Sequence record: MT446404.1
Length of the DNA: 51,754 nucleotides
Strand: one strand, 5' to 3'
From: Escherichia virus TH30
The position numbers were made by a program, and so were the translations under genes. The notes beneath the pieces are model-generated. The model was not told the DNA's origin and ran no database searches. It saw only the letters and a program-made list of their open reading frames with translations. Of this stretch, positions 15,065-35,588 are shown piece after piece; the first letter of the stretch is position 1, and every line of letters starts with the position of its first letter.

Positions 15065-15117
15065 AATTTGTTTTCCTTTGTTTGTTAGAAAGCCGTGATT
15101 AAGTTCACGGCTCTATA

Positions 15118-15134: not shown

Positions 15135-15181
15135 GCGTGCAACAGCTTTTTATGTTAAGCGCTTATGTCGTTCTCTGGAAA

Positions 15182-15205
15182 TAAAAAAGGAGCCTTTCGG
15201 CTCCC
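15182..15205 (-). terminator. rho-independent terminator (minus strand)
   Basis: GGAGCC-tttc-GGCTCC hairpin preceded by A-run on plus strand. Confidence 0.65.
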
Positions 15206-15221
15206 TATTATGGTTCAGCTA

Positions 15222-15734: not shown

Positions 15735-15787
15735 GATATTTTTCCTTTTTCACTTAGAGATTAAGCGGCCTTTCGACCGCCATTTTA

Positions 15788-18164: not shown

Positions 18165-18166
18165 GA

Positions 18167-19429: not shown

Positions 19430-19480
19430 CTGCTTTTCTCCAAATAAAAATGGCTAGGTTGTTAGCCTAGCCATTATACA

Positions 19481-21064
19481 TTATTTGCGCATTCCCGCTA
19501 ATCGTTTCATTCGAGCTACCGGATCATCAAGCAAGTTCATTTCGAAGTTGCCAGCATCAACCACGTTATCCACGATGTCATCGTGAGGATGGCTATCGTC
19601 AAAGGTGAATCCGACCAGTTCCGCCTCCATTTCAGTAAGCATTGGGTGTGATTCAGGAAACACGATTCGACCTGCCTTCATGATTGGTGCTGCGTCCATT
19701 GCGCGCGTAACCTTGTCGGTATCTCGCTGCACTGGCGTGATGTCAATCGGAAGCTTCTTGTTGATTGACTGAATCAGGCCCGTACCGCTTGCCTTGTCTT
19801 CAATGTAAACCTTGCGTAGTGACGTCTTGTTCTCCTTCGCCCACTTGAAGCAGTTTCCGTAAAAGTTAAGAGCCATCTTTTCAAGGTCCGGCGCTTCCCA
19901 CTTGCCGCGAATGCCGTCTATGAAATATACGCGATCCTTATACTTGCCCCACAAAACAAATACGCTGTAGTCGTGTATTTCCTCTGCTTTCTGCGCTGTA
20001 TCCGCAGTGGTGAACAGGTATTCGAAGCGTTCCGGTTTTGGCATGTTGGCTTTTTCACCGTCGCCGTAATACTGGAACCAGTCCGATTTGAACGCGTTAC
20101 CACCAAGCGCGATGGGCTTCTGCTGATACTGCGATTCAAACGTGTACAGGTCAGCTTCGCGCAACGCCAGTAGGCTTTCTGCGCTTTCCTTCGCGGGCCA
20201 GAAAGAGAAGTGTTCAACGCCGTCAATCATTACCGATGGGGAGGATAGCACGTCTCTGTCAAATTCCTCTTTCAACCAGTCAGGAAGCGTGTCTCTGTAT
20301 TCCTCAGTTACCAGCGCCGGAATGATTACCTGCTCAAACTTCATGCCGCCCATTCCGCCATTCATCAGGAACCATGTCGCGTCATTAACATGCAGTCTCT
20401 GCTGCACAACAACGCATGGCGTCTTGTCGTTCATCCTTCGAGATCGAACGGTATTCTTTAATAGCGTGTGACCAGCCTTCCTTTTCACTGCTGAGTATAA
20501 ATCTTTCGGCTTCTCAGGGTCATCAAGCGTCAACATGCCAGTGAATCCATCGTCCATATACCCGCCACGCTTACCAGTTACCTGGCCACCTATGGCGCGC
20601 GATGTTAACGTCAGCCACGCCTTGTCATTACTGTTTAGCGCTGTAATGTCTCCTCCTGAAGCTTTCGCTAGCTTGCAAGGCCATAACTCCTGGAACTCAT
20701 CAGATCCCAATATCTCTCGCGTCCTGATCCCGTTATCCTTCACTAGGCTGTCAGAGAATGAAAGGTTTAGGTTTCTTATCTTGCTACTGTGGAACATTCC
20801 GTAAACTGGCATGTGTATAGAAAATATCTCAGTTTTACCGGAGCCTGGAGTGATGTTGAATATGATGTTCTGTATCTCACCCTTAATGATCTGCTCAACC
20901 TTCCAGCAAAGGTAAGTGAAGTGCCAGTTAGATCTAAACTTCTGAGCCTGTATCAGTGCGAACCATATACGCATAAAGTCACTAAACGACCTTTCGCTCA
21001 TCACCTTTATTACCGCCTTTTCCTTTGGTGTCAGATCTTCCCAAATCAATATCTTGTTAGACAT
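19481..21064 (-). CDS. terminase large subunit (527 aa)
   Basis: Walker A-like TPGSGKTE near N-terminus; C-terminal acidic nuclease-like region. Confidence 0.8.
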   Translation of the reverse strand: MSNKILIWEDLTPKEKAVIKVMSERSFSDFMRIWFALIQAQKFRSNWHFTYLCWKVEQIIKGEIQNIIFNITPGSGKTEIFSIHMPVYGMFHSSKIRNLNLSFSDSLVKDNGIRTREILGSDEFQELWPCKLAKASGGDITALNSNDKAWLTLTSRAIGGQVTGKRGGYMDDGFTGMLTLDDPEKPKDLYSAVKRKAGHTLLKNTVRSRRMNDKTPCVVVQQRLHVNDATWFLMNGGMGGMKFEQVIIPALVTEEYRDTLPDWLKEEFDRDVLSSPSVMIDGVEHFSFWPAKESAESLLALREADLYTFESQYQQKPIALGGNAFKSDWFQYYGDGEKANMPKPERFEYLFTTADTAQKAEEIHDYSVFVLWGKYKDRVYFIDGIRGKWEAPDLEKMALNFYGNCFKWAKENKTSLRKVYIEDKASGTGLIQSINKKLPIDITPVQRDTDKVTRAMDAAPIMKAGRIVFPESHPMLTEMEAELVGFTFDDSHPHDDIVDNVVDAGNFEMNLLDDPVARMKRLAGMRK

Positions 21065-21123: not shown

Positions 21124-21642
21124 TCAAATCTTATCAAGTACGCTTTTCACGGCATCCTCTATGGTTTGCGTGTCATTCACAACATTGCTCACGTTAACTT
21201 CTGCTGCCTTGTCGATACCAATGTCTTTACCTACGAATCCAGCATTGATGAGGTTGGACGCGGCAAGCTGATATTTCTGTTCAATGATTACCGAGTCGAT
21301 GAACTCCATTACCTCAGAGAATCCAGGTGACGCTCGCCAGCTTTGGATCGCACCGGAGGTAACGCCGCAATAAAGCTGGAATCCGTTGAGCGTGAACACT
21401 CGCGGCTTGTGCACAAGGTTTTCAGTTACGACGCCCTGGAAGCTCGCCGTCTCAATGGCCTTGATTGCCTGGTCCTCGGCCCATGAGAAATATTTAACCG
21501 CAAGGTTGAATACAGTCTCAGGCGTCATTGGGTGACGATGGTTAAGGTTGGCAATGTCGCCATACTTTTTGTTGTATAGCTCTTTGAAGTTACCGATTCG
21601 AACCTTCTCGTTCGCGTGACTGGTGAAATTTTCGTCTTTCAT
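21124..21642 (-). CDS. terminase small subunit (172 aa)
   Basis: Position directly upstream of large terminase. Confidence 0.45.
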   Translation of the reverse strand: MKDENFTSHANEKVRIGNFKELYNKKYGDIANLNHRHPMTPETVFNLAVKYFSWAEDQAIKAIETASFQGVVTENLVHKPRVFTLNGFQLYCGVTSGAIQSWRASPGFSEVMEFIDSVIIEQKYQLAASNLINAGFVGKDIGIDKAAEVNVSNVVNDTQTIEDAVKSVLDKI

Positions 21643-21691: not shown

Positions 21692-21716
21692 TAAAAAAAG
21701 CACCCCGAAGGATGCT
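21692..21716 (-). terminator. rho-independent terminator (minus strand, G-U containing stem)
   Basis: GCATCC-ttcg-GGGTGC on the minus transcript followed by U7. Confidence 0.55.
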
Positions 21717-21724
21717 TAAATGAA

Positions 21725-21946
21725 TCAGTCAACGTATTTGATGGCCCCAGGCTTCCGCCCCGATCGAATATCGTTAATCTCGTTAAACACTGAGATGAAC
21801 TTACCGGATACTCGCCACTGCTTTTTCTTCTCATCGTATCGCGCTTGTGCGAATTGTCCGCGCTTGATTAGCTTAGCTACCCAGGCGCAAGATAACGAAA
21901 TGATCAGGACGGAAGCGAACAGAAAACCATAAATAAACGTCAGCAT
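21725..21946 (-). CDS. small membrane protein (73 aa)
   Basis: N-terminal hydrophobic helix, basic C-terminus. Confidence 0.4.
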   Translation of the reverse strand: MLTFIYGFLFASVLIISLSCAWVAKLIKRGQFAQARYDEKKKQWRVSGKFISVFNEINDIRSGRKPGAIKYVD

Positions 21947-22137
21947 TGAATACCCCTTACATAATTAACTAAAAATTTATGAGTCGTTGTATCGACTCCG
22001 CTCATTTGCTTCACCTTTGAAACGGCTTCTTCGGCACTAATGGCCTCAACCTTTGCTTCAAAGTTTTGCTTACACGATGCGCATGTGCGCCCCATTAGCA
22101 AGATAGTTAGCTTGACCTCAAACATATCAAACCTCAT
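21940..22137 (-). CDS. hypothetical protein (65 aa) with CxxC pair
   Basis: ORF only. Confidence 0.3.
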   Translation of the reverse strand: MRFDMFEVKLTILLMGRTCASCKQNFEAKVEAISAEEAVSKVKQMSGVDTTTHKFLVNYVRGIQC

Positions 22138-22310
22138 TGTTAGGTCCGGTTACGGAGTCCGGAAGGCTTTCACAATGCCTCGATTGTATTGCGACTTACA
22201 CTTTGCTTTTGGCGATGCGCTATTTCAATTTGCGGCTTACGAACCGCTCGTTGCCACTTGGTGGCCTCGTCTGTTTACGAGATTAAAGATACCAGTCAGT
22301 GGGATTGCTG

Positions 22311-22505
22311 TCAATCAACTTTTTTAAAAGTTCCATACGTCGGGCAAACAGGGTAGTCGATCGCGACCTTGTTACCCTCGTCGCTGTAGACGTAAACGAA
22401 CCCCTGGGAATCAACCTTTTCCACTGTGTACTCGCATCCAGTAAAGAACTCATAACCGCGCGCACCTATACACTTGATCACGTCACCCTTTTTGATCTTA
22501 CTCAT
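22311..22505 (-). CDS. hypothetical protein (about 64 aa from ATG at 22505)
   Basis: ORF 22311..22568 trimmed to an ATG preceded by GGGGAAAG. Confidence 0.3.
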   Translation of the reverse strand: MSKIKKGDVIKCIGARGYEFFTGCEYTVEKVDSQGFVYVYSDEGNKVAIDYPVCPTYGTFKKVD

Positions 22506-22737
22506 AGATACTTTCCCCATTTTCACGCTTGCCAACCAGCCCCTTAAGATAACCAGCAATCCACACAAATTTGTCGCGAGATATGATGGTCGCTACGGCC
22601 TCATGGTGCTTGGTAATAATTGAGGCAACCAGCTTGTCATCTTTGCGCTCTTTCTTGCTCAGGTCGGAATACGCTGCGTTTAATTGCTTGGCCTTGGCCT
22701 TTACTGCGTTCATCTGCGGATCGGTTAATCCAAACAT
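22498..22737 (-). CDS. hypothetical basic protein (79 aa)
   Basis: ORF only. Confidence 0.35.
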   Translation of the reverse strand: MFGLTDPQMNAVKAKAKQLNAAYSDLSKKERKDDKLVASIITKHHEAVATIISRDKFVWIAGYLKGLVGKRENGESIYE

Positions 22738-23063
22738 TATTCGTAAACCTCATCAATGATTTCGCTGATCTTGTTCATGGTGTCAACCTTGGCGCAATCC
22801 CATTCCGGTGAGCCTGGTTCTTCCCATGGTCCGCCAGGGCCGTGACACGTCATGTTGTCGATAAGTTCCGACACTTCGCTTTCCAGCACATTGCGCATGT
22901 GCTCAATCTGCCAGCATTCAACCGAGTCTTCTGCGTCGCGGTAAGCCTTGAACTCACCGCCGAGAACTTTTTGTGCAGCTTCGGCTGATTCCTTCGTTTC
23001 GTGAACGGTCCGGCGAATCTCTTTGCCGAACTTGCCGACTCCGTATGTGTGAATGTAAATCAT
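22737..23063 (-). CDS. hypothetical acidic protein (108 aa)
   Basis: ORF only. Confidence 0.4.
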   Translation of the reverse strand: MIYIHTYGVGKFGKEIRRTVHETKESAEAAQKVLGGEFKAYRDAEDSVECWQIEHMRNVLESEVSELIDNMTCHGPGGPWEEPGSPEWDCAKVDTMNKISEIIDEVYE

Positions 23064-23272
23064 TCTTCGATCACCTTATATTCATTTTCGCTAATGCTGA
23101 TCTCATCGCCAACGATGACAAACTCGGTTTCACGGATGGTCCTGATTGAAAGGTCGCCATCAATGTAATGACCGGACGTCTCTACCACGTCACCAACTTT
23201 AAAGCCGCATTCTTCCAGAGTAAGTGCATCGTCATCGGTCACATAGTTAACGTCGATAATTTCAATTTTCAT
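23060..23272 (-). CDS. hypothetical acidic protein (70 aa)
   Basis: ORF preceded by conserved promoter cassette. Confidence 0.4.
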   Translation of the reverse strand: MKIEIIDVNYVTDDDALTLEECGFKVGDVVETSGHYIDGDLSIRTIRETEFVIVGDEISISENEYKVIEE

Positions 23273-23329
23273 TTCTGCTTCCTCGTTCGTTTCGATGGGG
23301 TAACTATACAGCTACCCCGATTATGAGTT

Positions 23330-23346
23330 TTAACAAAAAGTGCTAT
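23330..23346 (-). promoter_or_regulatory. conserved 17-bp motif (minus-strand ATAGCACTTTTTGTTAA); upstream stop TAG embedded
   Basis: Followed on the minus strand by a hairpin with TATAGT and CATCGAAACGA before the next ATG. Confidence 0.55.
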
Positions 23347-23741
23347 CGCTTGTGATTTCGTGCATTCTTTTTCATTGCCGCGAAGGCGATAAAGCAGAAC
23401 ATCCCAGGCTCGGTGAATCGAAGTTTTCCATACTGGCGGCACATGCGGCGGAACTTACGCTTATCATTAAGGACGCCAGTTACGCGCTTCTCAGTTACAA
23501 CAAGGCGGCGCGGACCTTTTACTACCACGAAAGTGACTGCTGGGCCGCTTGCGAGATTCAGGTTAAACTTACTGCCTTTCTGGATGGCGTACCAAGTAAG
23601 GCCGTTATCCACATCAATAACATCAGCCACGTTGAGGTGACGGTTTGGCCTGCGTTTAGCTTCGTACACATGACCAACCTGAAAGTGATCTTCGAACAGA
23701 GGCGCTAACCCTGGATGTATTTTAACGCAACGTAATTTCAT
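23343..23741 (-). CDS. hypothetical basic protein (132 aa)
   Basis: ORF only. Confidence 0.4.
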   Translation of the reverse strand: MKLRCVKIHPGLAPLFEDHFQVGHVYEAKRRPNRHLNVADVIDVDNGLTWYAIQKGSKFNLNLASGPAVTFVVVKGPRRLVVTEKRVTGVLNDKRKFRRMCRQYGKLRFTEPGMFCFIAFAAMKKNARNHKR

Positions 23742-23940
23742 GGTTATTCCCCTTCGTTTTCGTCGAATTGTTGATTATTGATCTGAGTGCGAACCTCTTT
23801 GACCATCTCGGAGAACTCATAGGCTGTGCACTGCATAGGCTGAGTAGCCAGGAGTTGCTTAAGAATGACGGCTTGCTTATCTGACAGGTTGATAGTAATC
23901 ATTTTGCTTTCCTCTCGTTTGGTGTGAACTAACTATAACA

Positions 23941-23957
23941 AAACCCGCCGGAGCGGG
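23941..23957 (-). terminator. hairpin CCCGC-cgga-GCGGG with U-run, adjacent to conserved motif
   Basis: Read on minus strand. Confidence 0.45.
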
Positions 23958-23958
23958 T

Positions 23959-23975
23959 TTAGCAATTCGTGCTAT
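23959..23975 (-). promoter_or_regulatory. conserved 17-bp motif (ATAGCACGAATTGCTAA), dyad TAGCA/TGCTA
   Basis: Immediately after stop of 23976..24608. Confidence 0.55.
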
Positions 23976-24608
23976 TTACCATGGTAATCCATCTTCCCAC
24001 TCGTAAACATCAACCTCTGGAACTTGTGAGCTAATACCGCAAGCCTCAGCAACCGCCAGGACGCCGCCATAAATATCACCATTGACGAGGTGAACGCTAT
24101 GCTCCTGATACTTTTTATAATCAGGGAAATGCGATTCCTTGATGCGAATGTAACCACGGCTATCGCCAGCGAAAGTCTTGCCATCCATGAACAGGCGGAC
24201 CAGGGTAACATCGTGACCATCTTCAACGAGTTGGATCACTTCATCGGGGAAGCCGCCATCAGTGCAAACAAAGCAGAAGCCCTCATCACACAGTCGGATA
24301 TGTTCGCTCATCAATTTGCCGAACTGCTGATTGCCAAAAAGCGGCTTGACCACTGTTTCGCTAATCCAGATCATGAACTCACGGCAGGTCTTGCCACCGA
24401 GAAAGCCCTGAGGCTGCTCTTTCTGATCGCGGTCGTCGTATGCTGTGATGAACTTTGAGAAAGACTTGGCACCAAGGATGGATGCTGCAATCTCAAACAT
24501 CGGACGCTTGAAGCTAGTCGGGATGCAATTGTAATCTGCTGCAAGCGCGTTGCCGATCGTGTCTTTACCAACCGAAGCTGGGCCGTTGAGGATGATAATT
24601 TTTGACAT
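23976..24608 (-). CDS. P-loop nucleotide kinase (dNMP-kinase-like, 210 aa)
   Basis: Walker A GPASVGKDT at N-terminus. Confidence 0.6.
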   Translation of the reverse strand: MSKIIILNGPASVGKDTIGNALAADYNCIPTSFKRPMFEIAASILGAKSFSKFITAYDDRDQKEQPQGFLGGKTCREFMIWISETVVKPLFGNQQFGKLMSEHIRLCDEGFCFVCTDGGFPDEVIQLVEDGHDVTLVRLFMDGKTFAGDSRGYIRIKESHFPDYKKYQEHSVHLVNGDIYGGVLAVAEACGISSQVPEVDVYEWEDGLPW

Positions 24609-24657
24609 TTTTATATTCCTGAGTAGTGGGCGCGATGTGCGCCCGTTAAGGTTAGTT

Positions 24658-25275
24658 TTATTTACCGCTTACGAGATTGCATTTTTTGCACTGGCGAACA
24701 CCATGCGGAGGTAGCGGCTCGCTAAATTCGTGCTCGCAAACTTTTTCTACGCCGTGAGACTTAAGGGCGGAGTGCACGTTATCGCCATAGTCGCACACCT
24801 GATAGGTAGTGATTCCGAGGCTTCGGAAGTGAGCGATAACATTCGGGCTATCATCCCACGCTGCGGTGATGCGGTGCAAGCCAATGTATCGTAAAAACTC
24901 TTCCTTGATGATCGTATCCTTTCGGTTATCATCAGCCTGGCGCATGACCAGAACGTTATATTTAGCGCCAGCATCATGCAGCCATTGCGTTGATTCCTCA
25001 ACAACATCATCAGATCGACCAGTGAGTACGATAATGAAAGCGCCGGAAGCGAATAGGCTATTCATTACGTCAATCGTTTCCTGGAATGGCTGATCGAACT
25101 TGCTCAATGAGTTAAATTCAAGCCATGACTCAGTGAGGTGCAAATCCTTGGTCGGTAGCTTGTGCAGGCGGTGCGATCCGTCCGACAGAGTACCATCGAA
25201 ATCAAATATGTAAACTTTCTTGTTTACCGCTTCCGTTTGAAGGTGATGCTTAATCATGGTGTAAAGCTGATTCAT
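24658..25275 (-). CDS. HAD-superfamily phosphatase (polynucleotide 3-phosphatase-like, 205 aa)
   Basis: HAD motif I IFDFDGTL; C-terminal Cys/His cluster. Confidence 0.55.
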   Translation of the reverse strand: MNQLYTMIKHHLQTEAVNKKVYIFDFDGTLSDGSHRLHKLPTKDLHLTESWLEFNSLSKFDQPFQETIDVMNSLFASGAFIIVLTGRSDDVVEESTQWLHDAGAKYNVLVMRQADDNRKDTIIKEEFLRYIGLHRITAAWDDSPNVIAHFRSLGITTYQVCDYGDNVHSALKSHGVEKVCEHEFSEPLPPHGVRQCKKCNLVSGK

Positions 25276-25306
25276 TTTAACTTCCTTTCGTGTGGTTTAT
25301 GTGGGG

Positions 25307-25315
25307 ATTATACCA
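25307..25315 (-). promoter_or_regulatory. extended -10 TGGTATAAT inside a hairpin, downstream of conserved motif
   Basis: Plus-strand attatacca; about 35 nt upstream of ATG at 25275. Confidence 0.45.
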
Positions 25316-25333
25316 GTCAGGATGAATCCCCTT

Positions 25334-25350
25334 TTAACAAAGCGTGCTAT
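25334..25350 (-). promoter_or_regulatory. conserved 17-bp motif (ATAGCACGCTTTGTTAA), upstream stop TAG embedded
   Basis: Stop of 25347..26150 is the TAG of the motif. Confidence 0.55.
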
Positions 25351-26150
25351 TTGATATAAAACTGAGCCACTACGCCGCCATCAGGATTTACTATTGCGTA
25401 TGCGTCACCGGGCATTGCCTTGGCATTCATAACCTTACCAATTCTCTTTGCTTCCCATCGGCAATCGCCTTTTAATCCAGATACGAAAGCATCCTGCGTG
25501 ATGTAAATAAGTCTCGGACTACCGACAAAACTCTCACTGATTTCATACTCATACTCGCAACCATTGATAAATTCGTTGCCGTTAACATGGTAGCAAACTG
25601 CCACCTTGCGATCGCGTGCAGATTCGCATTCACCCACCGCCCATACGTGACGATTGCCATAACCGTAACCGCCGCTGCGTGGTTCCATTTTCGCGGTTGA
25701 CATCGTGATGCCATGGCTACCGATGAAACTTTCGCCAAAAGTGAACTTTCCGTTCTTCGTCAATTCATCTTCGACGCTGTAGGTGTCATCCTTAACGGTT
25801 TTCCCTGGGCCAGTCGCAAGCTCGCTTACGAACGCATCGACCGTGTTGTGGCACGGATCGCCATTGTACTTAGGAAAATCCTTGAGCAATTGCTCGTACG
25901 CTTCGTGCACCAGATTACCTACAACTTCTTTGATAGCCTGCTCAATATGCTCAGCGAGAATCGAAGGTGCAGAAATTTGATGTTTTTGAGTCGATTCTAA
26001 CGCCTTTAAACGCGCTTGTAACGACTCAATTTCTTGCTTATGCATCGCGTAGGATACCCACGCTCCATCGTCGCAGGCTTGCATTCCGACACCGTGAATG
26101 TTGACGCTGGTTGCTACTGATACAGGGATATAACGTCTGATGCTTTTCAT
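25347..26150 (-). CDS. hypothetical protein (267 aa), largest uncharacterised early protein
   Basis: ORF only; N-terminal coiled-coil-like segment. Confidence 0.5.
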   Translation of the reverse strand: MKSIRRYIPVSVATSVNIHGVGMQACDDGAWVSYAMHKQEIESLQARLKALESTQKHQISAPSILAEHIEQAIKEVVGNLVHEAYEQLLKDFPKYNGDPCHNTVDAFVSELATGPGKTVKDDTYSVEDELTKNGKFTFGESFIGSHGITMSTAKMEPRSGGYGYGNRHVWAVGECESARDRKVAVCYHVNGNEFINGCEYEYEISESFVGSPRLIYITQDAFVSGLKGDCRWEAKRIGKVMNAKAMPGDAYAIVNPDGGVVAQFYIK

Positions 26151-26218
26151 ATTTAATTCCTCAGTTGGTTTGTGTTCACTTGACAGGAGACACTATAGCT
26201 AATGTCTCCGAGCAAGTT

Positions 26219-26235
26219 TTAACAAAAAGTGCTAT
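26219..26235 (-). promoter_or_regulatory. conserved 17-bp motif, upstream stop TAG embedded
   Basis: Adjacent hairpin GGAGACA...TGTCTCC. Confidence 0.55.
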
Positions 26236-26450
26236 TTAATGACTCCGGCGCGAATTGCCATCTCAAGCGTGATGTACTGCTTAGCCGTCAGCGTTGAGTG
26301 ATAGGTGACTACTCCAGCCTTAATTGCTTTTACCAACTGATCCTGTGTGATGCGTGAGATGTTAATAATGCCGTATCCGCCACCAGTACGCAGAACCACA
26401 TCGCCGACCGCACAAAACTCAACGCCCTTGCTGTTAGTGTAGACTTGCAT
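26232..26450 (-). CDS. hypothetical protein (72 aa)
   Basis: ORF only. Confidence 0.4.
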   Translation of the reverse strand: MQVYTNSKGVEFCAVGDVVLRTGGGYGIINISRITQDQLVKAIKAGVVTYHSTLTAKQYITLEMAIRAGVIK

Positions 26451-26640
26451 TTTTTAACCCCTTAACCTGATGCGCCGTTCCCGTGCGAATGGCTGTTACT
26501 AAGTGAGTGAATACTGACGCCTGGCTTAAAGCCTTAATCCATCGACCGTATTGTGGGTAGTATACGTATCCAGTGCCACATGCTACAGCAAACCACATGC
26601 CGTCACGCATAAAAACTATTGGCTTCAACGGAATCATGAT
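26434..26640 (-). CDS. hypothetical protein (trimmed start)
   Basis: Overlapping ORF chain; start uncertain. Confidence 0.25.
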   Translation of the reverse strand: MMIPLKPIVFMRDGMWFAVACGTGYVYYPQYGRWIKALSQASVFTHLVTAIRTGTAHQVKGLKNASLH

Positions 26641-26807
26641 TATTGTTCCTTCAAGTATAGGTAAATAACGTAAGATACAGTAAGTGGCCACAGTGCAGAA
26701 ACAAACAATAAATCGTACCATTTATTCTCGCTATTGCGCACATTGTGTGCGATGGCATAAACCGGAAGTGCGCCCAGGATGTAAAGCACGATGCATAAAA
26801 TAATCAT
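26640..26807 (-). CDS. small two-helix membrane protein (about 55 aa)
   Basis: MIILCIVLYILGALPVYAI... hydrophobic; start overlaps upstream stop. Confidence 0.3.
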   Translation of the reverse strand: MIILCIVLYILGALPVYAIAHNVRNSENKWYDLLFVSALWPLTVSYVIYLYLKEQ

Positions 26808-27232
26808 AAGTAACCCTTCCCTACAGTTTCGCCAACTTCGCGTGATGCCTTTAATTTGTTCCAGAAATCGAACGGGCCGACTGGCTCCCACGCTTTCGGT
26901 TTTCCTGGCTCATTCCACCAACCTAGAACGCAGTCGCTACCGTACGCCGTTCCCATTGGTTTACCGTCGCTGTAGTGGTCCTTGAACACGCGGTCAAGCT
27001 CATCCCCACCAACCTTGATTGATTTGATTTCAAAGCCATAACTCTTCTTCATCACCAAATCATGATCATAAAAGAACCCGTCTACAACGATAGGGTAAGA
27101 ACCAGGATCGCGCGGACTTGTATCTTTCTCATGCAGCTTGCGATAGTTTGGATCGGCATAGATGTTTGGGTTAAGTAAACGAACTCTCATTTGTAATTCC
27201 TCTGATTGGTTGTTTTGCTTCAATAAGGCCAC
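26804..27232 (-). CDS. hypothetical protein (142 aa)
   Basis: ORF only. Confidence 0.4.
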   Translation of the reverse strand: MALLKQNNQSEELQMRVRLLNPNIYADPNYRKLHEKDTSPRDPGSYPIVVDGFFYDHDLVMKKSYGFEIKSIKVGGDELDRVFKDHYSDGKPMGTAYGSDCVLGWWNEPGKPKAWEPVGPFDFWNKLKASREVGETVGKGYL

Positions 27233-27257
27233 TATATCAAATGGCCTTGCGGAAGGT

Positions 27258-27274
27258 TTAACAAAAAGTGCTAT
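27258..27274 (-). promoter_or_regulatory. conserved 17-bp motif, upstream stop TAG embedded
   Basis: Position inferred from stop of 27271..27459. Confidence 0.5.
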
Positions 27275-27459
27275 TCGAATTTTTCGTTATGGTGAATAAC
27301 CTCAGCCACGTAAATCTTTCTCAAGAACCACTCCTGCGTTCCGGTGGAAGTGATTTTGTGCATCTTCCACACCTGGTGCCAAGGCAGGTATTCCATATCC
27401 TCAGCCAGTGCCGTAAAAGCCTTGCCGCAGTGAGTGTAAATCGTGGTGTAAGTGGTCAT
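27271..27459 (-). CDS. hypothetical protein (62 aa)
   Basis: ORF; leader GTATACTTCTTTCATACCAAC shared with the leader of 41883..42116. Confidence 0.4.
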   Translation of the reverse strand: MTTYTTIYTHCGKAFTALAEDMEYLPWHQVWKMHKITSTGTQEWFLRKIYVAEVIHHNEKFE

Positions 27460-27514
27460 TTCGTATCTCCCTTGTTGGTATGAAAGAAGTATACCAGTCA
27501 GGGAGAATATCGTT

Positions 27515-27531
27515 TTAGCAATTCGTGCTAT
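27515..27531 (-). promoter_or_regulatory. conserved 17-bp motif (ATAGCACGAATTGCTAA)
   Basis: Followed by CTGACTGGTATACT extended -10-like element. Confidence 0.5.
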
Positions 27532-27626
27532 TCCACCACAACCAGGAAGATTATCACCAGAAACAAAAGCACCCAGGATAGCCCGACAAGAAGCAATTGC
27601 AGCACGTCAACTAATTTGAACTTCAT
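27528..27626 (-). CDS. 32-aa hydrophobic micro-protein (MKFKLVDVLQLLLVGLSWVLLFLVIIFLVVVE)
   Basis: Below the ORF-track size cut-off; ATGA overlap with upstream stop; stop TAG inside the motif. Confidence 0.35.
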   Translation of the reverse strand: MKFKLVDVLQLLLVGLSWVLLFLVIIFLVVVE

Positions 27627-27838
27627 AGCACCTCAACCTCATCCTCTGCAAATGGCCAGTCGCCAGGAGCCATTCCATTCCTGCTTAGCGCCGGAAGGAA
27701 GTCAGCGTCAACCATGTAAAGGGTTTCGAACTCACCTTCATACCTCCAGGCCGTCGCCACCACTGGCAGCTTGCTTGAGTCAACGCCTCGATAAGGTGAC
27801 TTGATGATGCGGATCTTAATCATTTCTTCATTGTTCAT
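27623..27838 (-). CDS. small acidic protein (about 71 aa from MNNEEM)
   Basis: ORF, trimmed start. Confidence 0.35.
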   Translation of the reverse strand: MNNEEMIKIRIIKSPYRGVDSSKLPVVATAWRYEGEFETLYMVDADFLPALSRNGMAPGDWPFAEDEVEVL

Positions 27839-28034
27839 TGCGGCGCTCCATGTAGTCAGCCATTTTGATAAGGTGCTCGCCCATTGCGCGGACGGTAGCC
27901 GGATCTTGCATCGGGAATGCTCCAGAGTCATCATCAATCACGATTTCGACAGTGACATTATCGACATTGGTCATCGTGTCAATCCAGCAATCGTCATCGT
28001 CCATATCCTGGAAGCGCTTGCGATCTGTGATCAT
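27828..28034 (-). CDS. small acidic protein (68 aa), distant relative of the tandem family
   Basis: C-terminal helix ATVRAMGEHLIKMADYMER resembles the family C-terminus. Confidence 0.35.
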   Translation of the reverse strand: MITDRKRFQDMDDDDCWIDTMTNVDNVTVEIVIDDDSGAFPMQDPATVRAMGEHLIKMADYMERRNEQ

Positions 28035-28255
28035 AAAACCCCCTTCTCAGCGCGGCGGGCCGCTTCCATCAGGTGACATGCCAGTTGGCGCGCCTGGTCA
28101 GGCGTGTAAAGCATGTAACTGCTTGGGTATGACTCATCATGAGGATTGAAGTCAAGTCGTACCTTGAAAGTCACACGATCATTATTGTGAATCTTCACAG
28201 CCTCAATCTCGGCCTGCTCGTTGTAGTCGTCTGCGATGCGTACCTTGGTACTCAT
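28031..28255 (-). CDS. small acidic protein, paralogue family member 4 (74 aa)
   Basis: C-terminus YTPDQARQLACHLMEAARRAEKGVL. Confidence 0.5.
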   Translation of the reverse strand: MSTKVRIADDYNEQAEIEAVKIHNNDRVTFKVRLDFNPHDESYPSSYMLYTPDQARQLACHLMEAARRAEKGVL

Positions 28256-28321
28256 AATTTACCCCTTGGTTGATTGTTTCACTTCAATGAGTGCACTATA
28301 GCAAATGCACTCACGTCAGTT

Positions 28322-28338
28322 TTAACAAAAAGTGCTAT
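28322..28338 (-). promoter_or_regulatory. conserved 17-bp motif, upstream stop TAG embedded
   Basis: Stop of 28335..28622 is the TAG of the motif. Confidence 0.55.
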
Positions 28339-28622
28339 CGCTCATCTTCCCTGGAGCATCCTTTGCCGCAACCATGGCGACCAACTTCCACGATGCCGAC
28401 TCCGCTTAAGCCGATGTATTCCTGACCAGTGTCCTTATCGGTGATGACGTATATCGCTCTGACGTTCTCGTATGCCAGGTCATCCCTGAACTCCTGAATC
28501 TTCACAACCTGGACGCGATCGTTTACGTTTACTGGCATCATCTGCCGAGCGTCGGAGCTAACCCTTGTATCTGAGTCACAACCAGCCAGCGCCAGGGCTG
28601 CTAATAAAATTAGTTTCTTCAT
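28335..28622 (-). CDS. lipoprotein (95 aa), candidate superinfection-exclusion protein
   Basis: Signal plus lipobox MKKLILLAALALAGC. Confidence 0.5.
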   Translation of the reverse strand: MKKLILLAALALAGCDSDTRVSSDARQMMPVNVNDRVQVVKIQEFRDDLAYENVRAIYVITDKDTGQEYIGLSGVGIVEVGRHGCGKGCSREDER

Positions 28623-28819
28623 TCGATAATCCTCAATAGTTTCTCTTTGCGATGCGGTTCGCCGGACTTATTCAGCCAGTAGCGCGCCTGGGAAAGCTGG
28701 CTGGCATGGGCCACTGTCACCCACCAGAATAATGCTACCCGCTTTTGGACTGCATACCACTTGACCGGATGACCTAAGGCGGTCGTCGTGTCAACCAATA
28801 CGATCCTGAATTTATTCAT
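28619..28819 (-). CDS. hypothetical basic protein (about 66 aa from MNKFRIV)
   Basis: ORF trimmed to the ATG overlapping the upstream stop. Confidence 0.3.
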   Translation of the reverse strand: MNKFRIVLVDTTTALGHPVKWYAVQKRVALFWWVTVAHASQLSQARYWLNKSGEPHRKEKLLRIIE

Positions 28820-29030
28820 CGACTTCTGCCTCCACTTCATCAGCCGCCTTGATGAGTGCCGCCGCCAGTTCACGCGCCTGCTCTGCTGTGTAGGTCATAC
28901 CTGTACCATCCGCCCGAGAATCCGGTAAAAGGTCCAGGTGCACGCGCTTACGCATCTTGCCAAACGGAACCTTGATTACTGAGATTTCTGTTTCCTGATT
29001 CCAGGATGAGTTAACTCGAATATCTCTCAT
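28812..29030 (-). CDS. small acidic protein, paralogue family member 3 (72 aa)
   Basis: C-terminus YTAEQARELAAALIKAADEVEAE. Confidence 0.5.
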   Translation of the reverse strand: MRDIRVNSSWNQETEISVIKVPFGKMRKRVHLDLLPDSRADGTGMTYTAEQARELAAALIKAADEVEAEVDE

Positions 29031-29224
29031 TGCTTTTCCGCCTCTTCCGCTACTTTAATGAGCGCCTCCGCCAACTTACGTGCTTGTTCCGGCGTGTAAT
29101 GAGCTATGGCAAAGCTATCCCCGTCGCTGTCTGTTTCAGTAAGACTTACCACGCCGTCATAATAGATTGAGGTTGACACCTCGGTGCTTACGCCTAAAAA
29201 ATCTTCGAAGATTACAATCTCCAT
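29027..29224 (-). CDS. small acidic protein, paralogue family member 2 (65 aa)
   Basis: C-terminus HYTPEQARKLAEALIKVAEEAEKQ. Confidence 0.5.
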   Translation of the reverse strand: MEIVIFEDFLGVSTEVSTSIYYDGVVSLTETDSDGDSFAIAHYTPEQARKLAEALIKVAEEAEKQ

Positions 29225-29226
29225 AA

Positions 29227-29439
29227 TTATTTCTTCTCCGCTTCATCTGCTGCCAGGATTAACGCTGCCGCTAATTTGCGCGCGTCATCAGGTGTATAGT
29301 GCATCATGCTTACATCGCAATCGTCAGGATCGAAGTCAATGGAGACTACAGCCTTGACTACTCCAGTCCGATTGGTTAGCACGCTAACCTCAGCGGCATC
29401 ACCAACCACATCCTCAATGCGTAAAATTTCCATAATCAT
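29227..29439 (-). CDS. small acidic protein, paralogue family member 1 (70 aa)
   Basis: C-terminus HYTPDDARKLAAALILAADEAEKK. Confidence 0.5.
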   Translation of the reverse strand: MIMEILRIEDVVGDAAEVSVLTNRTGVVKAVVSIDFDPDDCDVSMMHYTPDDARKLAAALILAADEAEKK

Positions 29440-29490
29440 TTCCTCTTTGTTGTCGATAGGGTAATCATAGCTGACTACCCGATTTATTGT

Positions 29491-29507
29491 TTAGCAATTC
29501 GTGCTAT
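29491..29507 (-). promoter_or_regulatory. conserved 17-bp motif, upstream stop TAG embedded
   Basis: Stop of 29504..30055 is the TAG of the motif. Confidence 0.55.
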
Positions 29508-30055
29508 TCACCGTTCAGGAGAGCTTTCGCTTTCCGGTAGAACTGGATGGCCTTCTCCACCTCATCGGCATCATAGCCATGGATTGTTGTCTGCGGTGGC
29601 ACGTAGTGAGAACGTCGCGCGTCGGATCGGTATTGGTTGCACCATCTGTACACGCCTCGTTCATCCATTCCCACCAGGGCCGGATGCACATAAATCTTAT
29701 CGCCAATGAGGCAAACAATTCCCGCCTCCTGTAGTGCTGGGATGATGTTATTTGTCAGGTCATGCATGATCCCTTCGCGACCGACGAATGGCTGGACCTT
29801 TCGGATTGCCTCGTATAGAGATCGAATGCCAGCAACTCCCTTCCCATTGCAGCACTGGCGGCTAATCCTGCTCACTACGACGCCGTATTTGTAGCTCAAC
29901 TTGACGCACAGCATCTCTTCGGCGCTGGGCCAGAACTTGAATGATTGACGGTATCCATTGGCATTGATTGCCACACGAAGTGGCGGCAGGTTATCTTGCC
30001 TGGCGACTTCCATCACCTTTTCATCGGTCAATTTATCTTCGTCGAAATTAAACAT
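29504..30055 (-). CDS. 183-aa protein sharing N- and C-terminal segments with the 527-aa P-loop protein at 35589..37172
   Basis: MFNFDEDKL...DNLPPLRVAINANGYRQS and GIRSLYEAIRKVQPF...CLIGDKIYVHP match both ends of the larger protein. Confidence 0.55.
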   Translation of the reverse strand: MFNFDEDKLTDEKVMEVARQDNLPPLRVAINANGYRQSFKFWPSAEEMLCVKLSYKYGVVVSRISRQCCNGKGVAGIRSLYEAIRKVQPFVGREGIMHDLTNNIIPALQEAGIVCLIGDKIYVHPALVGMDERGVYRWCNQYRSDARRSHYVPPQTTIHGYDADEVEKAIQFYRKAKALLNGE

Positions 30056-30591
30056 TAGTTAGTATCCTTAATCATTTCATGGTAACGGGCCAGGGCAATG
30101 AGAGCGCCTTCTTTCTGCTCTCCTTTCAGGTCGATGACGTTTGGTGTGATCTTGAGCAGACGAGCCTTGAACCTTTCAATAGCTGCCGCTTCTTTCTCAA
30201 CATCGGCAGTCTTTCGTTTGGTTGGCTTAAGTGCCCCAGGCTCAAGCTGGATTAACAGGTTCTTATCAGCGCCGTCGCCATCCGCCTTGCGTGCTACAGT
30301 TTCCTCTCCTGACGCCAGCCAGATAAAGCGATGCTTGACGTGCATATCAATATCCCGAAGCTCCTGCATTCTTGCTGCGGTGTTATAGATGTATGAACTT
30401 TTAAGCCCTGCGATCTCACGCCCAGGAGTCATGTACTCCCCCGTCACCTCGTCCAGTATTTCATCTGGATAATCATGACCATTGACCAGGTTGAATATCT
30501 TGCGAACCGGAACTACGCACAGCTTCTTGTCGGACTTAATTGCCTGGCGTACCATCTCGCGAATCACATCACCCAATGTTACCTTATCCAT
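30055..30591 (-). CDS. hypothetical protein (178 aa), first gene of the leftward early block
   Basis: ORF only. Confidence 0.45.
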   Translation of the reverse strand: MDKVTLGDVIREMVRQAIKSDKKLCVVPVRKIFNLVNGHDYPDEILDEVTGEYMTPGREIAGLKSSYIYNTAARMQELRDIDMHVKHRFIWLASGEETVARKADGDGADKNLLIQLEPGALKPTKRKTADVEKEAAAIERFKARLLKITPNVIDLKGEQKEGALIALARYHEMIKDTN

Positions 30592-31109
30592 ACTACCACC
30601 TCATTTGATTGTTGCGTTTAAGTGAGGTCATTATGATGAGAGTTAACGCGTAAGTCAACCGTAATCGCATGTAAAAATCAGGTCGGGAAACATTTCTGCC
30701 ATGTAGGCCTTGCCACACCTGATGTAAGTAGGCGGTATATCGTGTAACGCATCCTGAAAGGTGATTGCCTATATATGGCCTCATTACCCTGGCGGAATGG
30801 TCATCTTATATAGTAGTGGGAGATATTATCAAATTTGATGGAGGTTGCGCCTAGATAGTCGTTACACAGTATACATAGATATATATAATAATAATAATAT
30901 AGATAAATGGTTGTTATATATAGATATTTTATTGTAACTAATGCGTAAAACAGCGTATGCCGCGTATGCTCATGCCAAATCGTTACACGGCATACATTGG
31001 CTATACATGCGTTACGCACAATTACGCGTATGCGCTGGAAAACGTGTGGCGGGAAAATCCTACCAGGCGATCAGGGATCAGATCTCACCCCATCATTCCC
31101 CCCTCCAAT

Positions 31110-35518: not shown

Positions 35519-35588
35519 GTAGCATTTTTTGGCAAGCGGTTTTACCATAGGTGCGTTAACATTAGCGCACCAACTAAGGAGTTTTTTA

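Follow-up and report, generated by a model that had tools for sequence, protein, structure and literature searches.

The leftward arm of the T1-like phage TH30 is a row of small genes divided by a repeated promoter-like cassette

What does the long run of small leftward genes beside the packaging genes of Escherichia virus TH30 encode, and how is it organised? The window (the whole stretch of DNA analysed, 51,754 nucleotides, MT446404.1) is a complete T1-like genome (Drexlerviridae, Nouzillyvirus-like), in which positions 21725..30591 form an 8.9-kb arm bounded on one side by the divergent control region and on the other by the packaging genes. The first-pass annotation had described a dense leftward block of mostly small, uncharacterised early genes without recognisable motifs, of the kind that typically holds host-takeover and anti-defence functions. 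The density is borne out: the arm carries 27 genes of 25–267 aa, all on the minus strand, with ~90% coding. They comprise 26 genes of 52–267 aa, 22 of them at most 132 aa long, and a 32-aa micro-gene at 27528..27626. By position the arm is the counterpart of ST77–ST55 of T1, with only five or six genes in common. As a type of region it is ordinary, though its internal architecture has some points of interest; new here are its division by cassettes, five acidic paralogs of predicted beta4-alpha fold and a partial copy of the phage helicase (g02). All features of the arm located below are on the minus strand.

Gene starts were picked by Shine-Dalgarno sequence and spacing, and the refined calls equal the public gene calls exactly in the ten cases looked up. 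With orthologues from CJ19, ETEP102 and an ESCO41-like contig, purifying selection was found in 24 of the 26 genes tested (dN/dS 0.05–0.36); the other two, g11 and g14, recur, identical or nearly so, in public protein clusters with 80 and 5 members respectively. These values, the Shine-Dalgarno sites and ATGA-type coupling among the genes, the dense coding on one strand and the recurrence of the proteins in many independent contigs argue against the idea that many of these short ORFs arose by chance or are decaying remnants scattered among a few genuine genes. Several do lack any homologue in PHROGs, Pfam or T1, ETEP102 has g02 in split form and the CJ19 homologue of g12 carries a frameshift, but this explanation is already largely refuted and we regard it as extremely improbable.

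Over the block Pfam recognises one functional domain (HAD_PNKP, in g17) and three DUFs. PHROGs returns “unknown” for all matches except g17 and g18, and no match at all for 6 of the 26 genes scanned; searches with NCBIfam and PADLOC gave nothing further. The absence of recognisable motifs was therefore nearly right as first stated, failing only for the HAD_PNKP domain of g17 and the PHROG assignment of g18, and the enzyme assignments that the sequences suggest are limited to these two genes (a HAD 3'-phosphatase and a dNMP-kinase-like P-loop protein). Because only 2 of the 27 genes are enzymes of known type, the block does not resolve into housekeeping families and can still be called uncharacterised. 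None of its products matches a known anti-defence or takeover protein, and in the libraries covered, Pfam and PADLOC among them, none matches a defence-related or anti-defence family.

Eight copies of a ~50-nt cassette split the arm into ~10 units. Each begins with (A/G)ATAGCAC, in which the TAG usually serves the preceding gene as its stop codon, followed by TTG(C/T)TAAAA, the two making a TAGCA-N5-TGCTA palindrome. Then come exactly 22 nt, a spacing invariant in the eight copies and usually containing a 6–9-bp hairpin; a -10-like TATAGT, mostly after TGn, in or just past the hairpin loop; and a CA-rich leader with a Shine-Dalgarno site and ATG. The G at -14 and the ATAGCAC core are conserved. 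The copies lie before g03 (cassette 1, 29458..29507, with the TAG stop of g02, the palindrome, hairpin GGGTA/TACCC and -10 TATGAT), g08 (cassette 2, 28289..28338, GAGTGCA/TGCACTC around TATAGT), g11 (cassette 3, 27482..27531, extended -10 TGG-TATACT), g12 (cassette 4, 27225..27274, AAGGCCA/TGGCCTT), g16 (cassette 5, 26186..26235, GGAGACA/TGTCTCC), g17 (cassette 6, 25301..25350, GGGGATT/AATCCCC and TGG-TATAAT), g19 (cassette 7, 23926..23975, a terminator-like GC hairpin and T-run, then TGT-TATAGT) and g21 (cassette 8, 23297..23346, GGGGTA/TACCCC).

A 16-mer of the cassette occurs 10 times against 0.55 expected. The hairpin arms vary between copies yet stay complementary: in nine hairpin sequences, chosen by eye, compensatory changes affect 6 of 7 pairs, and 98.4% of hairpin cells are paired against 40–49% in slid controls, a level reached by 0 of 500 shuffles. 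The cassettes have no -35 hexamer at 17±1 bp, as TTGYTA sits 5 bp too far upstream. Since the -35 is missing, and the TGn extension too in two or three copies, some cassettes may be weak or factor-dependent. The hairpin could alternatively function at the RNA level, in read-through transcripts (attenuation or stability), and not as a DNA element.

The window contains ten further copies outside the block. The cassette is common to replication, recombination and methylase genes and absent from the 21-kb virion module, no copy preceding a virion gene; because one copy, at 39686, lies upstream of the HNH/holin region, it is not strictly an “early” marker. It is also present in T1, Bas11 and CJ19, and IMG/VR contains at least 120 stretches with it, most of them on 41–53-kb contigs. 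Cassettes are almost the only nucleotide similarity of the arm to T1 and Bas11, and in T1 they stand before unrelated genes: cassette 4 is 91% identical to the T1 cassette before ST68, a gene without protein similarity to g12.

The flanks g01–g02 and g16–g26 are conserved within the genus; among phages ~87% identical, modules of the central part (g03–g15) are present or absent. Those that differ between close relatives start and stop in cassettes, the indels ending exactly there. In ETEP102, 26236..28273 is missing and the one cassette there aligns to both cassettes of the window; the ESCO41-like contig lacks ~27276..29504, a stretch between two cassettes. This presence and absence of modules, the five-copy acidic family and the use of cassettes indirectly support an accessory, fast-turnover region.

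The arm opens with a sigma70-type promoter (TTGACT-17-CATAAT, 30630..30658; 10 of 12 matches in a consensus scan) before g01 (30055..30591, 178 aa, DUF7174, Pfam 2.1e-44; phrog_4841; dN/dS 0.07–0.29). The next gene, g02 (29504..30055, 183 aa, phrog_7327), is a paralog of the phage's own DUF3987 helicase (35523..37169), with 67% and 56% identity by BLASTP as against only 29–36% to the helicases of T1 and Bas11. It keeps only the N-terminal (residues 23–70) and C-terminal (residues 486–549) segments; the DUF3987 core of the helicase spans residues 103–452, and the ATPase core is missing from g02.

Five acidic paralogs follow: g03 (29227..29433, 68 aa, net charge -8), g04 (29027..29224, 65 aa, -10), g05 (28812..29030, 72 aa, dN/dS 0.05), g08 (28031..28255, 74 aa) and the distant g09 (27828..28034, 68 aa, -10, phrog_16871, 26% identity). 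The score of g09 against the family HMM (1.9e-22) is circular because the HMM includes g09 itself; its CJ19 orthologue, outside the HMM, scores 1.2e-11. In this family the helix is conserved and the sheet variable. A beta4-alpha (PUR/PC4-like) fold is confidently predicted for them, a fold that gives no function; they can be set beside the PUR repeat, PC4 and Whirly-type nucleic-acid-binding domains (8chw, 5fgo, 5a4n, 6ycs, and 4bg7 of T5), and COMM domains are a further comparison group.

Between and after the paralogs lie the basic g06 (28619..28819, 66 aa, pI 10.4, phrog_2010) and g07 (28335..28622, 95 aa, “unknown” in PHROGs), a predicted lipoprotein with lipobox LAG|C and Asp at +2, the classical inner-membrane retention signal of E. 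coli. The acidic g10 (27623..27838, 71 aa, also a public gene call) has no PHROG or Pfam match. Its stop is overlapped by the ATG of the micro-gene g10b (27528..27626), predicted to encode a single-pass membrane protein, 88% identical to the annotated CJ19_052 and ending in a cassette TAG. Then come g11 (27271..27459, 62 aa), missing from CJ19, ETEP102 and L007; g12 (26804..27190, 128 aa, likewise a public call), without family match in Pfam, PHROGs and NCBIfam; g13 (26640..26807, 55 aa, hydropathy 2.61), with two predicted transmembrane helices and an ATGA overlap with g12; the rare basic g14 (26434..26637, 67 aa); and g15 (26232..26450, 72 aa, phrog_34564, “unknown”). With g26, g10b and g13 make three predicted tiny membrane proteins in the block.

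The 267-aa ORF singled out in the first-pass annotation, g16 (25347..26150), is real and without assignable motif. It has 135 homologues, among the matches listed mostly on contigs of ~50 kb and also on short fragments. A coiled coil (residues 34–90) and a six-stranded beta domain (residues 180–267) are predicted, the middle being of low confidence and the model poor overall. We considered Gp54 of Bas11 (PDB 9AXB; Pfam PF25180), the trigger of the defence protein CapRelSJ46, as a relative. No sequence or profile similarity to g16 is detectable, and Gp54 is not among the Foldseek top 50, with no significant match from this poor model; unlike g16, Gp54 is a stand-alone 66-aa protein encoded in the opposite arm.

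The product of g17 (24658..25275, 205 aa) is assigned as a stand-alone T4-Pnkp-type HAD 3'-phosphatase (HAD_PNKP, 1.7e-18; PDB matches 5uj0 and 4xrp), its DFDGT motif included in the alignment with the DxDGT of the phosphatase domain of T4 Pnkp (pseT; residues 136–297, 27% identity, 1e-12). It lacks the kinase domain of T4 Pnkp, which makes the database label “polynucleotide kinase” a misnomer, and it is nearer to a nucleic-acid 3'-end phosphatase than to a nucleotidase. Its C-terminal tail is Cys/His-rich and is absent in CJ19. The neighbouring g18 (23976..24608, 210 aa) is dNMP-kinase-like, with P-loop GPASVGKDT and a match to phrog_139 (dNMP kinase, 6.8e-41); it is not recognised in Pfam, NCBIfam and PDB sequence searches, matches the T4 gp1 dNMP kinase weakly at the N-terminus (P-loop GK(D)T) and has no detectable relation to the kinase domain of T4 Pnkp. 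Its homologues are found in 1446 phage records; of the 40 rows shown, 11 have a match that also touches a gene annotated as phosphatase or “polynucleotide kinase”. No RNA ligase partner, for comparison with T4 Pnkp, appears in the T1 annotation. Both genes suggest a part in nucleotide or nucleic-acid-end metabolism and not in takeover.

The distal part comprises g19 (23744..23902, 52 aa, DUF7180), the strongly basic g20 (23343..23741, 132 aa, pI 10.7, +18, phrog_34194), the strongly acidic g21 (23060..23272, 70 aa, -14) and the acidic g22 (22737..23063, 108 aa), whose first 44 aa are a module common to several PHROGs and T1 ST4. Homologues of T1 ST59, ST58 and ST56 follow as g23 (22498..22737, 79 aa), g24 (22311..22505, 64 aa) and g25 (21940..22125, 61 aa), then g26 (21725..21946, 73 aa, DUF7299, with a predicted N-terminal transmembrane helix), which adjoins TerS across the genus. 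A strong intrinsic terminator, AAGCATCC-TTCG-GGGTGCTT plus T7 (21698..21717), closes the arm before TerS.

We consider it fairly probable that the arm is a T1-like accessory “left arm” of modular units split by cassettes and encoding mainly small binding proteins. Host sigma70 RNA polymerase would read it as a series of ~10 short transcription units, g01–g02 from the canonical promoter and the other genes from the extended -10 promoters of the cassettes, and the upstream palindrome, whose centre lies near -42, probably serves a phage regulator as operator. Promoter activity and timing are deduced from sequence, a search for transcript data on T1-like phages having yielded none. The cassettes may double as homologous-recombination linkers for module swaps. 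The products would be mainly binding proteins, not enzymes (the acidic paralogs, the helicase-termini paralog, the lipoprotein, the three tiny membrane proteins, and acidic or basic miniproteins), with g17 and g18 as one conserved nucleotide/nucleic-acid-end enzyme pair among them. They would be expressed ahead of the virion genes or separately from them, conditioning the cell in a number of unrelated ways, and the best candidates for host- or defence-directed functions would be the acidic paralogs and g16.

The “early” and “anti-defence” readings of the block are plausible, but “early” is an interpretation and was not observed. That it is chiefly a takeover and anti-defence island, most of its small proteins inhibiting immunity or shutting off the host early, would suit proteins that are small, often strongly acidic and non-enzymatic, a five-copy family with conserved helix and variable sheet, modules that come and go, and the lack of housekeeping assignments. 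But the lack of defence-related matches in Pfam and PADLOC speaks against it, the purifying selection gives no sign of an arms race, nucleotide or replication roles are suggested by g17, g18 and perhaps g02, and genus-conserved g01–g02 and g16–g26 suit core accessory functions better than strain-specific counter-defence; we hold it possible, though rather doubtful.

An extension of replication and nucleotide metabolism is unlikely in our estimate: dNTPs would come from degraded host DNA through g17 and g18, g02 would modulate the replisome and the small ORFs would be accessory subunits. The phrog_139 match of g18, its homologues in many phage records (some of the matches also touching a phosphatase or “polynucleotide kinase” gene), the published reading of the pair as nucleotide supply (PMC13164509), the derivation of g02 from the replicative helicase and the presence of helicase, Dam and recombination genes behind the same cassette are in its favour. 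It fits only 2–3 of the 27 genes, however; the variable small genes show no connection with replication, g18 escaped three of the searches, and g17 is not closest to a nucleotidase. That a substantial part serves superinfection exclusion or envelope modification through g07, g10b, g13 and g26 seems more improbable still. The lipobox and Asp of g07 and the small membrane proteins agree with it, and T1-like phages have a gene for the exclusion lipoprotein Cor at another genome location (PMC13164509), but g07 has no similarity to T1 Cor, only 4 of the 27 genes are membrane-associated and g26, next to TerS, may have another role.

The accessory arm that we favour has its closest parallels in T1 (ST77–ST55, NC_005833, 539..8311) and Bas11 (genes 56–87). 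T1 and other Drexlerviridae arms share its position between the genome end or divergent control region and TerS, its single orientation, ~23–32 small hypothetical genes, a HAD phosphatase and a P-loop gene inside, the same repeated cassette, and the terminator before TerS, annotated at the same place in T1. T1 has homologues only of g17, g18, g23, g24 and g25 and of the N-terminal module of g22; neither T1 nor Bas11 has the acidic paralog array or the helicase paralog, and T1 carries an HNH gene between its phosphatase and kinase genes.

The cassettes recall the PeSLs (promoter-early stem-loops) of T4-like phages, short repeated intergenic elements of promoter and stem-loop that are concentrated among small non-essential ORFs and at which insertions, deletions and replacements between close relatives begin and end (PMC2839356, PMC4122927). 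Those of TH30 are also promoter-like intergenic repeats with a stem-loop, likewise concentrated among small non-essential ORFs and bounding indels between close relatives, but in a 50-kb siphovirus. PeSL promoters have full sigma70 consensus -35 and -10 boxes, whereas the cassettes have an extended -10 without properly spaced -35; the PeSL stem-loop has been shown to terminate, while only some cassettes have a T-run. In contrast to PeSLs, the cassettes have their hairpin between the upstream motif and +1, the loop often holding the -10, and they add a conserved palindrome that includes the TAG stop of the upstream gene.

The whole T1 gene set is found on the window in T1 order when the T1 proteins are mapped, and the window is thus a complete, circularly permuted T1-like genome of 51.7 kb. 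Its segment 21700..30650 matched 320 of 50,697 phage records by megablast, nearly all of them T1-like coliphages and Klebsiella phages, the best being Escherichia phage CJ19 (Drexlerviridae, Nouzillyvirus; 86.7% identity over 88% of the query). All plausible genes of the block at 21725..30591 (g01 to g26 in transcription order) are on the minus strand. The block is co-oriented with the packaging genes and lies between the divergent control region/genome end and TerS (21124..21642, minus); TerS and TerL (19481..21064, minus) are directly downstream, and the first plus-strand genes start from 31306, past a divergent intergenic region of ~700 bp. Because of these two flanks the block is the counterpart of T1 ST77-ST55 (539..8311) and of Bas11 genes 56-87, and the same layout of this arm is found in T1, CJ19, ETEP102 and Bas11. 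A strong intrinsic terminator (8-bp stem, UUCG loop and T7; 21717..21698, minus) closes the arm before TerS, as does in T1 the terminator annotated at 8322..8344. At the other end a canonical promoter, TTGACT-17-CATAAT (30658..30630, minus), stands in front of g01-g02. By tblastn, homologues in T1 exist for only 5–6 of 27 block genes; relatives at the genus level have homologues of 24 of 26.

There is no tRNA anywhere in the window, tRNA and Rfam scans being empty. The arms of ETEP102 and ESCO41 carry a tRNA-Arg at the place of window 22126..22310 (the g24-g25 gap), where the window segment is shorter by about 160 nt; at 22314..22286 there is a promoter-like TTGACA-17-TATCTT with TG. Three HNH endonuclease genes are present on the minus strand (16918..17412, 39145..39618 and 40839..41339), between the protease and head-morphogenesis genes and flanking the exonuclease gene. 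These sites differ from T1, which has an HNH gene separating the phosphatase and P-loop genes; the window has none there.

Gene starts were refined by Shine-Dalgarno sequences, spacing and ATGA-type overlaps, giving the 26 genes; the calls are identical to the public ones for this contig in all ten cases looked up. The first-pass annotation had described a dense, one-strand block of mostly small, uncharacterised genes, and this is confirmed: the products have between 32 and 267 aa, with 132 aa or less in 22 of the 26 larger genes, and coding density is ~90%. The ORFs are real genes. Relative to orthologues from CJ19, ETEP102 and an ESCO41-like contig, dN/dS is 0.05–0.36 for 24 of 26. The other two, g11 and g14, lack orthologues there and belong to public clusters of 80 and 5 members. 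Functional labels are obtained for g17 and g18 only, and Pfam, PHROGs and NCBIfam do not place most of the ORFs in housekeeping families, the point on which that description depended. The description was correct, and the block is of an ordinary type: the arm of hypothetical genes of a T1-like phage. Its “early” and “anti-defence” readings are no more than plausible; literature searches on T1-like phage transcriptomics and on functional work on the arm returned nothing relevant. Two broken genes in relatives look like signs of ongoing decay or turnover in the arm: in ETEP102 the g02 homologue is split into ETEP102_03 and ETEP102_04 (7343..7903), and in CJ19 the g12 homologue is frameshifted and carries no annotation (7360..7765).

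Pfam gives one functional domain in the block, HAD_PNKP in the 205-aa g17 (1.7e-18), and three DUFs (DUF7174 in g01, DUF7180 in g19, DUF7299 in g26). No described anti-defence or host-takeover family (Ocr, ArdA, Gam, Acr, Tad, Gad, Acb and others) is above the Pfam threshold; the best anti-defence candidate, the T7 Gp4.5 TA_inhibitor for g05, has an E of 0.058, below cut-off. PADLOC, which covers defence systems only, has no match in the block, and neither it nor NCBIfam nor a PDB sequence search of the concatenated block adds anything beyond g17. PHROGs labels g17 “polynucleotide kinase” and g18, a 210-aa P-loop protein, “dNMP kinase” (6.8e-41); its remaining matches are of “unknown function”, and 6 of the 26 genes scanned have none.

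The g17 product aligns to the phosphatase domain of T4 Pnkp (residues 136–297; 180 aa aligned, 27% identity, 1e-12), with its nucleophile motif FDFDGT (DxDxT/DxDGT) on FDVDGT of T4. By this alignment and the Pfam match it shares with T4 Pnkp the HAD-type 3'-phosphatase domain, but it lacks the P-loop 5'-kinase domain that T4 carries in the same protein. A split Pnkp made of g17 and g18 is ruled out for the kinase half, as the similarity of g18 to the Pnkp kinase is not significant (E 0.22). The T1 annotation lists no RNA ligase partner. The label “polynucleotide kinase” is an annotation error, corrected here to phosphatase only. The P-loop of g18 is GPASVGKDT (GxxxxGK(D/T)), and the phrog_139 match of 6.8e-41 spans residues 1–180; g18 also weakly matches T4 gp1 over its N-terminal 44 aa (E 6e-4) and has no Pfam, NCBIfam or PDB sequence match. 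By P-loop and phrog_139 match it would belong to the dNMP kinase family, with a predicted kinase activity. Homologues of g18 occur in 1446 phage records, and in 11 of 40 matches listed the match also touches an annotated phosphatase/“polynucleotide kinase” gene. A recent analysis reads a g17/g18-type pair as nucleotide supply (PMC13164509). The C-terminus of g17 (24658..24740) is rich in Cys and His (VCEHEF...RQCKKCNL), a possible zinc-binding motif; this tail is missing in the CJ19 orthologue, where the alignment stops at residue 178.

Structurally the block is most informative between its genes: the 70–80-nt intergenic gaps of the arm are copies of one element, hereafter the cassette. On the coding strand it starts with (A/G)ATAGCAC, and in most copies the preceding gene terminates at the TAG of this motif. 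It continues with nnnTTG(C/T)TAAAA, so that both parts form a TAGCA-N5-TGCTA palindrome, then with a spacer of exactly 22 nt in 8 of 8 block copies and a -10-like hexamer (TATAGT, TATAAT, TATGAT or TATACT), mostly after TGn. A CA-rich leader (CATCGAAACGAA or ATTGAAG...) precedes the Shine-Dalgarno site and the ATG.

In most copies the stretch from the upstream motif to the presumed +1 can fold into a 6–9-bp hairpin that holds the -10 in its loop; some (e.g. 23971) have instead a GC hairpin and a T-run just upstream of the -10. Predicted stabilities are about -10 to -20 kcal/mol in most copies, and a T-run is found in some copies only. The arms differ between copies yet remain complementary (GAGTGCA/TGCACTC, AAGGCCA/TGGCCTT, GGAGACA/TGTCTCC, GGGGTA/TACCCC, GGGGATT/AATCCCC). 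In nine non-identical copies in one register, compensatory changes occur in 6 of 7 pairs. Cells are paired in 98.4% of cases, a percentage inflated by the choice of the nine copies by eye, versus 40–49% with slid partners, and none of 500 shuffles reaches the observed value.

The TTGYTA of the palindrome could be taken for a sigma70 -35 box. This reading is rejected because it stands 22 nt from the -10 in every block copy, i.e. 5 bp too far upstream. Extended -10 promoters can work without a -35, and the conserved G at -14 fits such a character, predicted here for the cassette. The centre of the palindrome is near -42, the classical site of class II activators. An HTH regulator gene (Cro/YdaS-like, homologous to T1 ST23) at 46099..46578 (plus) is divergent from a cassette at 46091 (minus), and its product is a candidate binder of the palindrome, which is present in every cassette.

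The 16-mer core occurs ten times in the window versus 0.55 expected. With a looser pattern there are eight copies in the 8.9-kb block (“CAC” positions 29503, 28334, 27527, 27270, 26231, 25346, 23971 and 23342, minus; g01-g02 have the canonical promoter in place of a cassette) and ten good copies outside it, located by the C of “CAC” at 50249, 46091, 43500, 42186 and 39686 (minus) and at 31231, 31637, 32814, 33184 and 35087 (plus). The latter ten precede Erf, the SF2 helicase, Dam, ST17/18-like genes, the HNH/holin region and the opposite, plus-strand small-gene arm. With the same pattern no credible cassette precedes any part of the 21-kb virion module (1..21000). The element is also found in T1 (seven copies in ST77-ST55), Bas11 and CJ19, and in at least 120 IMG/VR stretches, mostly on contigs of 41–53 kb. 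A literature search, whose coverage stopped short of the subscription-journal T1 and Rtp genome papers, returned no paper with the motif.

Cassettes bound the differences between relatives. Homology to ETEP102 ends at 26235 and restarts at 28274, and the single ETEP102 cassette aligns to both window cassettes; g08-g15 thus form a module between direct-repeat cassettes. The ESCO41-like contig lacks ~27276..29504 (g03-g11), a gap flanked by the 27270 and 29503 cassettes. In comparisons with T1 and Bas11, hardly any nucleotide similarity in the arm remains outside the cassettes and g17. The g12 cassette is 91% identical to that of T1 ST68, while the g12 and ST68 proteins are unrelated: an apparent BLAST match that would make g12 a homologue of ST68 is the translated shared cassette, not the genes.

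Among the products, g03, g04, g05 and g08 are mutually 38–48% identical, with g09 a 26% relative; net charges of the five are -8, -10, -4, -2 and -10, in the order g03, g04, g05, g08, g09. A family HMM finds exactly these five members in the window, 5–6 in CJ19, 4 in an IMG/VR relative, 2 in ETEP102 and 1 in each of three 44–47-kb relatives; where single, the paralog is immediately after g02. None is found in T1 nor in the examined stretch of the ESCO41-like contig, and for Bas11 there is a marginal match confined to the helix (E 0.021). Conservation is in the C-terminal helix (YTPxxARKLAAALIxAAxEAE), the sheet being variable. A profile search over 1.84 billion representatives yields 176 clusters, mostly stand-alone proteins of 55–80 aa. 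By tblastn against phage genomes g03 gave 18 records, an uninformative count because the low-complexity filter masked the conserved helix; a related-locus search gave one locus with TerS and four with a paralog alignment.

The AlphaFold2 model has four strands and one helix (pLDDT 88.9), and this predicted beta-beta-beta-beta-alpha fold would be that of PC4, PUR and Whirly domains. No match to Pfam or PDB profiles and no sequence homology to these domains was found. They have a basic or aromatic nucleic-acid-binding surface, whereas the paralogs are acidic; nucleic-acid binding in the manner of PC4 and PUR is therefore unlikely. Our preferred guess, which we still rate as unlikely, is that they are dimeric decoys or mimics binding a host or phage protein. 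Other homes for the family do not hold: DUF6907, DUF7739, T7 Gp4.5 and “DUF600” (the annotation of CJ19_054) are sub-threshold only (4/91 and 2/91 relatives), and PF25991, listed for two relatives, has no match in the Pfam scan.

“Long” paralogs of 85–88 aa in public protein sets (P0155-P0170, P0215 and others) begin with MDRVVGYDYPIDNKEEM...; we read them as probable start miscalls, MDRVVGYDYPIDNKEEM corresponding to the translated conserved cassette (CGGGTAGTCAGCTATGATTACCCTATCGACAACAAAGAGGAAATG; window 29434..29490). A g03 copy, 86–90% identical, is present in the unrelated 145-kb phage A5-4 (OP744025, “Septuagintavirus sv54”, A54_112), which implies a recent horizontal transfer of a g03-type gene between phage families.

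The g02 product is built solely of terminal segments of the phage's own DUF3987 helicase (35523..37169): residues 1–48 are 67% identical to helicase residues 23–70 and residues 66–129 are 56% identical to 486–549, the ATPase core (103–452) being missing. This composition suggests that g02 may be a regulator, or a competitor for the binding partners of these terminal segments. The helicases of T1 and Bas11, two phages that lack g02, are only 29–36% identical to the g02 product. Homologues occur in CJ19, in ETEP102, where the gene is split in two, and in four IMG/VR relatives; one of them again matches the helicase of its own genome.

The largest product, the 267-aa g16 (25347..26150), has 135 homologues, and among 120 listed most are on ~50-kb contigs as well as short fragments. 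Its model is poor overall (pLDDT 55.6), with a coiled coil at residues 34–90 and a six-stranded beta domain at 180–267 (pLDDT mostly 65–85 in 10-residue blocks). Gp54, a six-stranded barrel of 66 aa, triggers CapRelSJ46 (PMC11578894). It is a top match for g16 and comes from the same phage family; chance is unlikely. Foldseek gave nothing significant, PF25180 had no match (the Pfam scan of g16 was empty), a comparison of Gp54 with all ORFs of the window by phmmer and BLAST was negative, and hhalign returned a profile-profile probability of 0.9%. The Gp54 gene lies in the opposite arm of Bas11. We regard the modelled link as a tentative and somewhat doubtful lead.

The g07 product has a predicted lipoprotein signal, MKKLILLAALALAG/C (LAG/C lipobox), with Asp at +2. 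Asp at this position is the classical inner-membrane retention signal, and the sorting rule predicts that g07 would be kept at the inner membrane. It shares with the superinfection-exclusion lipoproteins Cor and Llp only the signal peptide, but neither homology nor, given the predicted inner-membrane retention, the location expected for an outer-membrane receptor blocker; no window ORF is similar to T1 Cor (ST30). Small membrane proteins are predicted for g10b, g13 and g26. Of these, g10b is an unlisted hydrophobic, single-pass micro-gene of 32 aa (27528..27626, minus; MKFKLVDVLQLLLVGLSWVLLFLVIIFLVVVE) that shares 88% identity with the annotated CJ19_052. It begins with an ATG overlapping the stop of g10 and ends on the TAG of the cassette. 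The g20 product is very basic (+18), and g21 and g22 are very acidic.

These elements can be joined in one reading, i.e. a dual-purpose cassette, paralog mimics, g02 as decoy or regulator and a g16 barrel akin to Gp54, although we hold it improbable that the whole is right. The cassette would be a regulator-dependent extended -10 promoter with its -10 in a conserved hairpin, and TAGCA-N5-TGCTA, centred near -42 and ahead of the hairpin, would be the operator, possibly bound by the ST23-like HTH protein (46099..46578). It would also be a recombination linker by which T1-like phages exchange ready-to-express modules. In this reading the five acidic beta4-alpha paralogs would form PUR/PC4-fold dimers that mimic single-stranded nucleic acid and disable host DNA- or RNA-binding defence or repair proteins; g02 may act as a helicase decoy or regulator, and the C-terminal barrel of g16 may be a divergent relative of the CapRel trigger Gp54.

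T1-like phages are common and notorious laboratory contaminants with a growing use as therapy candidates, and about half of their genes are without assignment. To the first description of the arm the analysis adds the modular cassette architecture, the covarying hairpin and the cassette-bounded indels, the confident predicted fold of the five-copy acidic family, the helicase-termini paralog and the tentative link of g16 to an immune trigger. As a set of cassette-delimited modules the arm lends itself to rational dissection, by module-wise deletion or swap at cassettes, and ATAGCACnnnTTGYTAAA offers a simple tag for non-virion promoters and recombination joints in any Drexlerviridae genome. Candidates for host-directed functions are narrowed to the acidic beta4-alpha family, g16, g02 and the lipoprotein. 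Two recurrent annotation errors are corrected, the “polynucleotide kinase” label and the 85–88-aa “long” paralogs.

A close known system is the promoter-early stem-loop (PeSL) of T4-like phages, a composite promoter/stem-loop motif that mediates indels among ORFans (PMC2839356, PMC4122927). Like PeSLs, the T1-like cassette is repeated, intergenic and concentrated among variable small ORFs, it has an adjacent stem-loop (predicted, covarying), and the end points of indels and replacements between close relatives fall in it. The two differ in construction: PeSLs have consensus sigma70 -35 and -10 boxes (~17 bp) and an AT-rich upstream region, whereas the T1-like cassette has no -35, its hairpin surrounds the -10 and its palindrome includes a stop codon. 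If the cassette works as proposed, modular shuffling of the PeSL type would reach from T4-like myoviruses to a siphovirus family.
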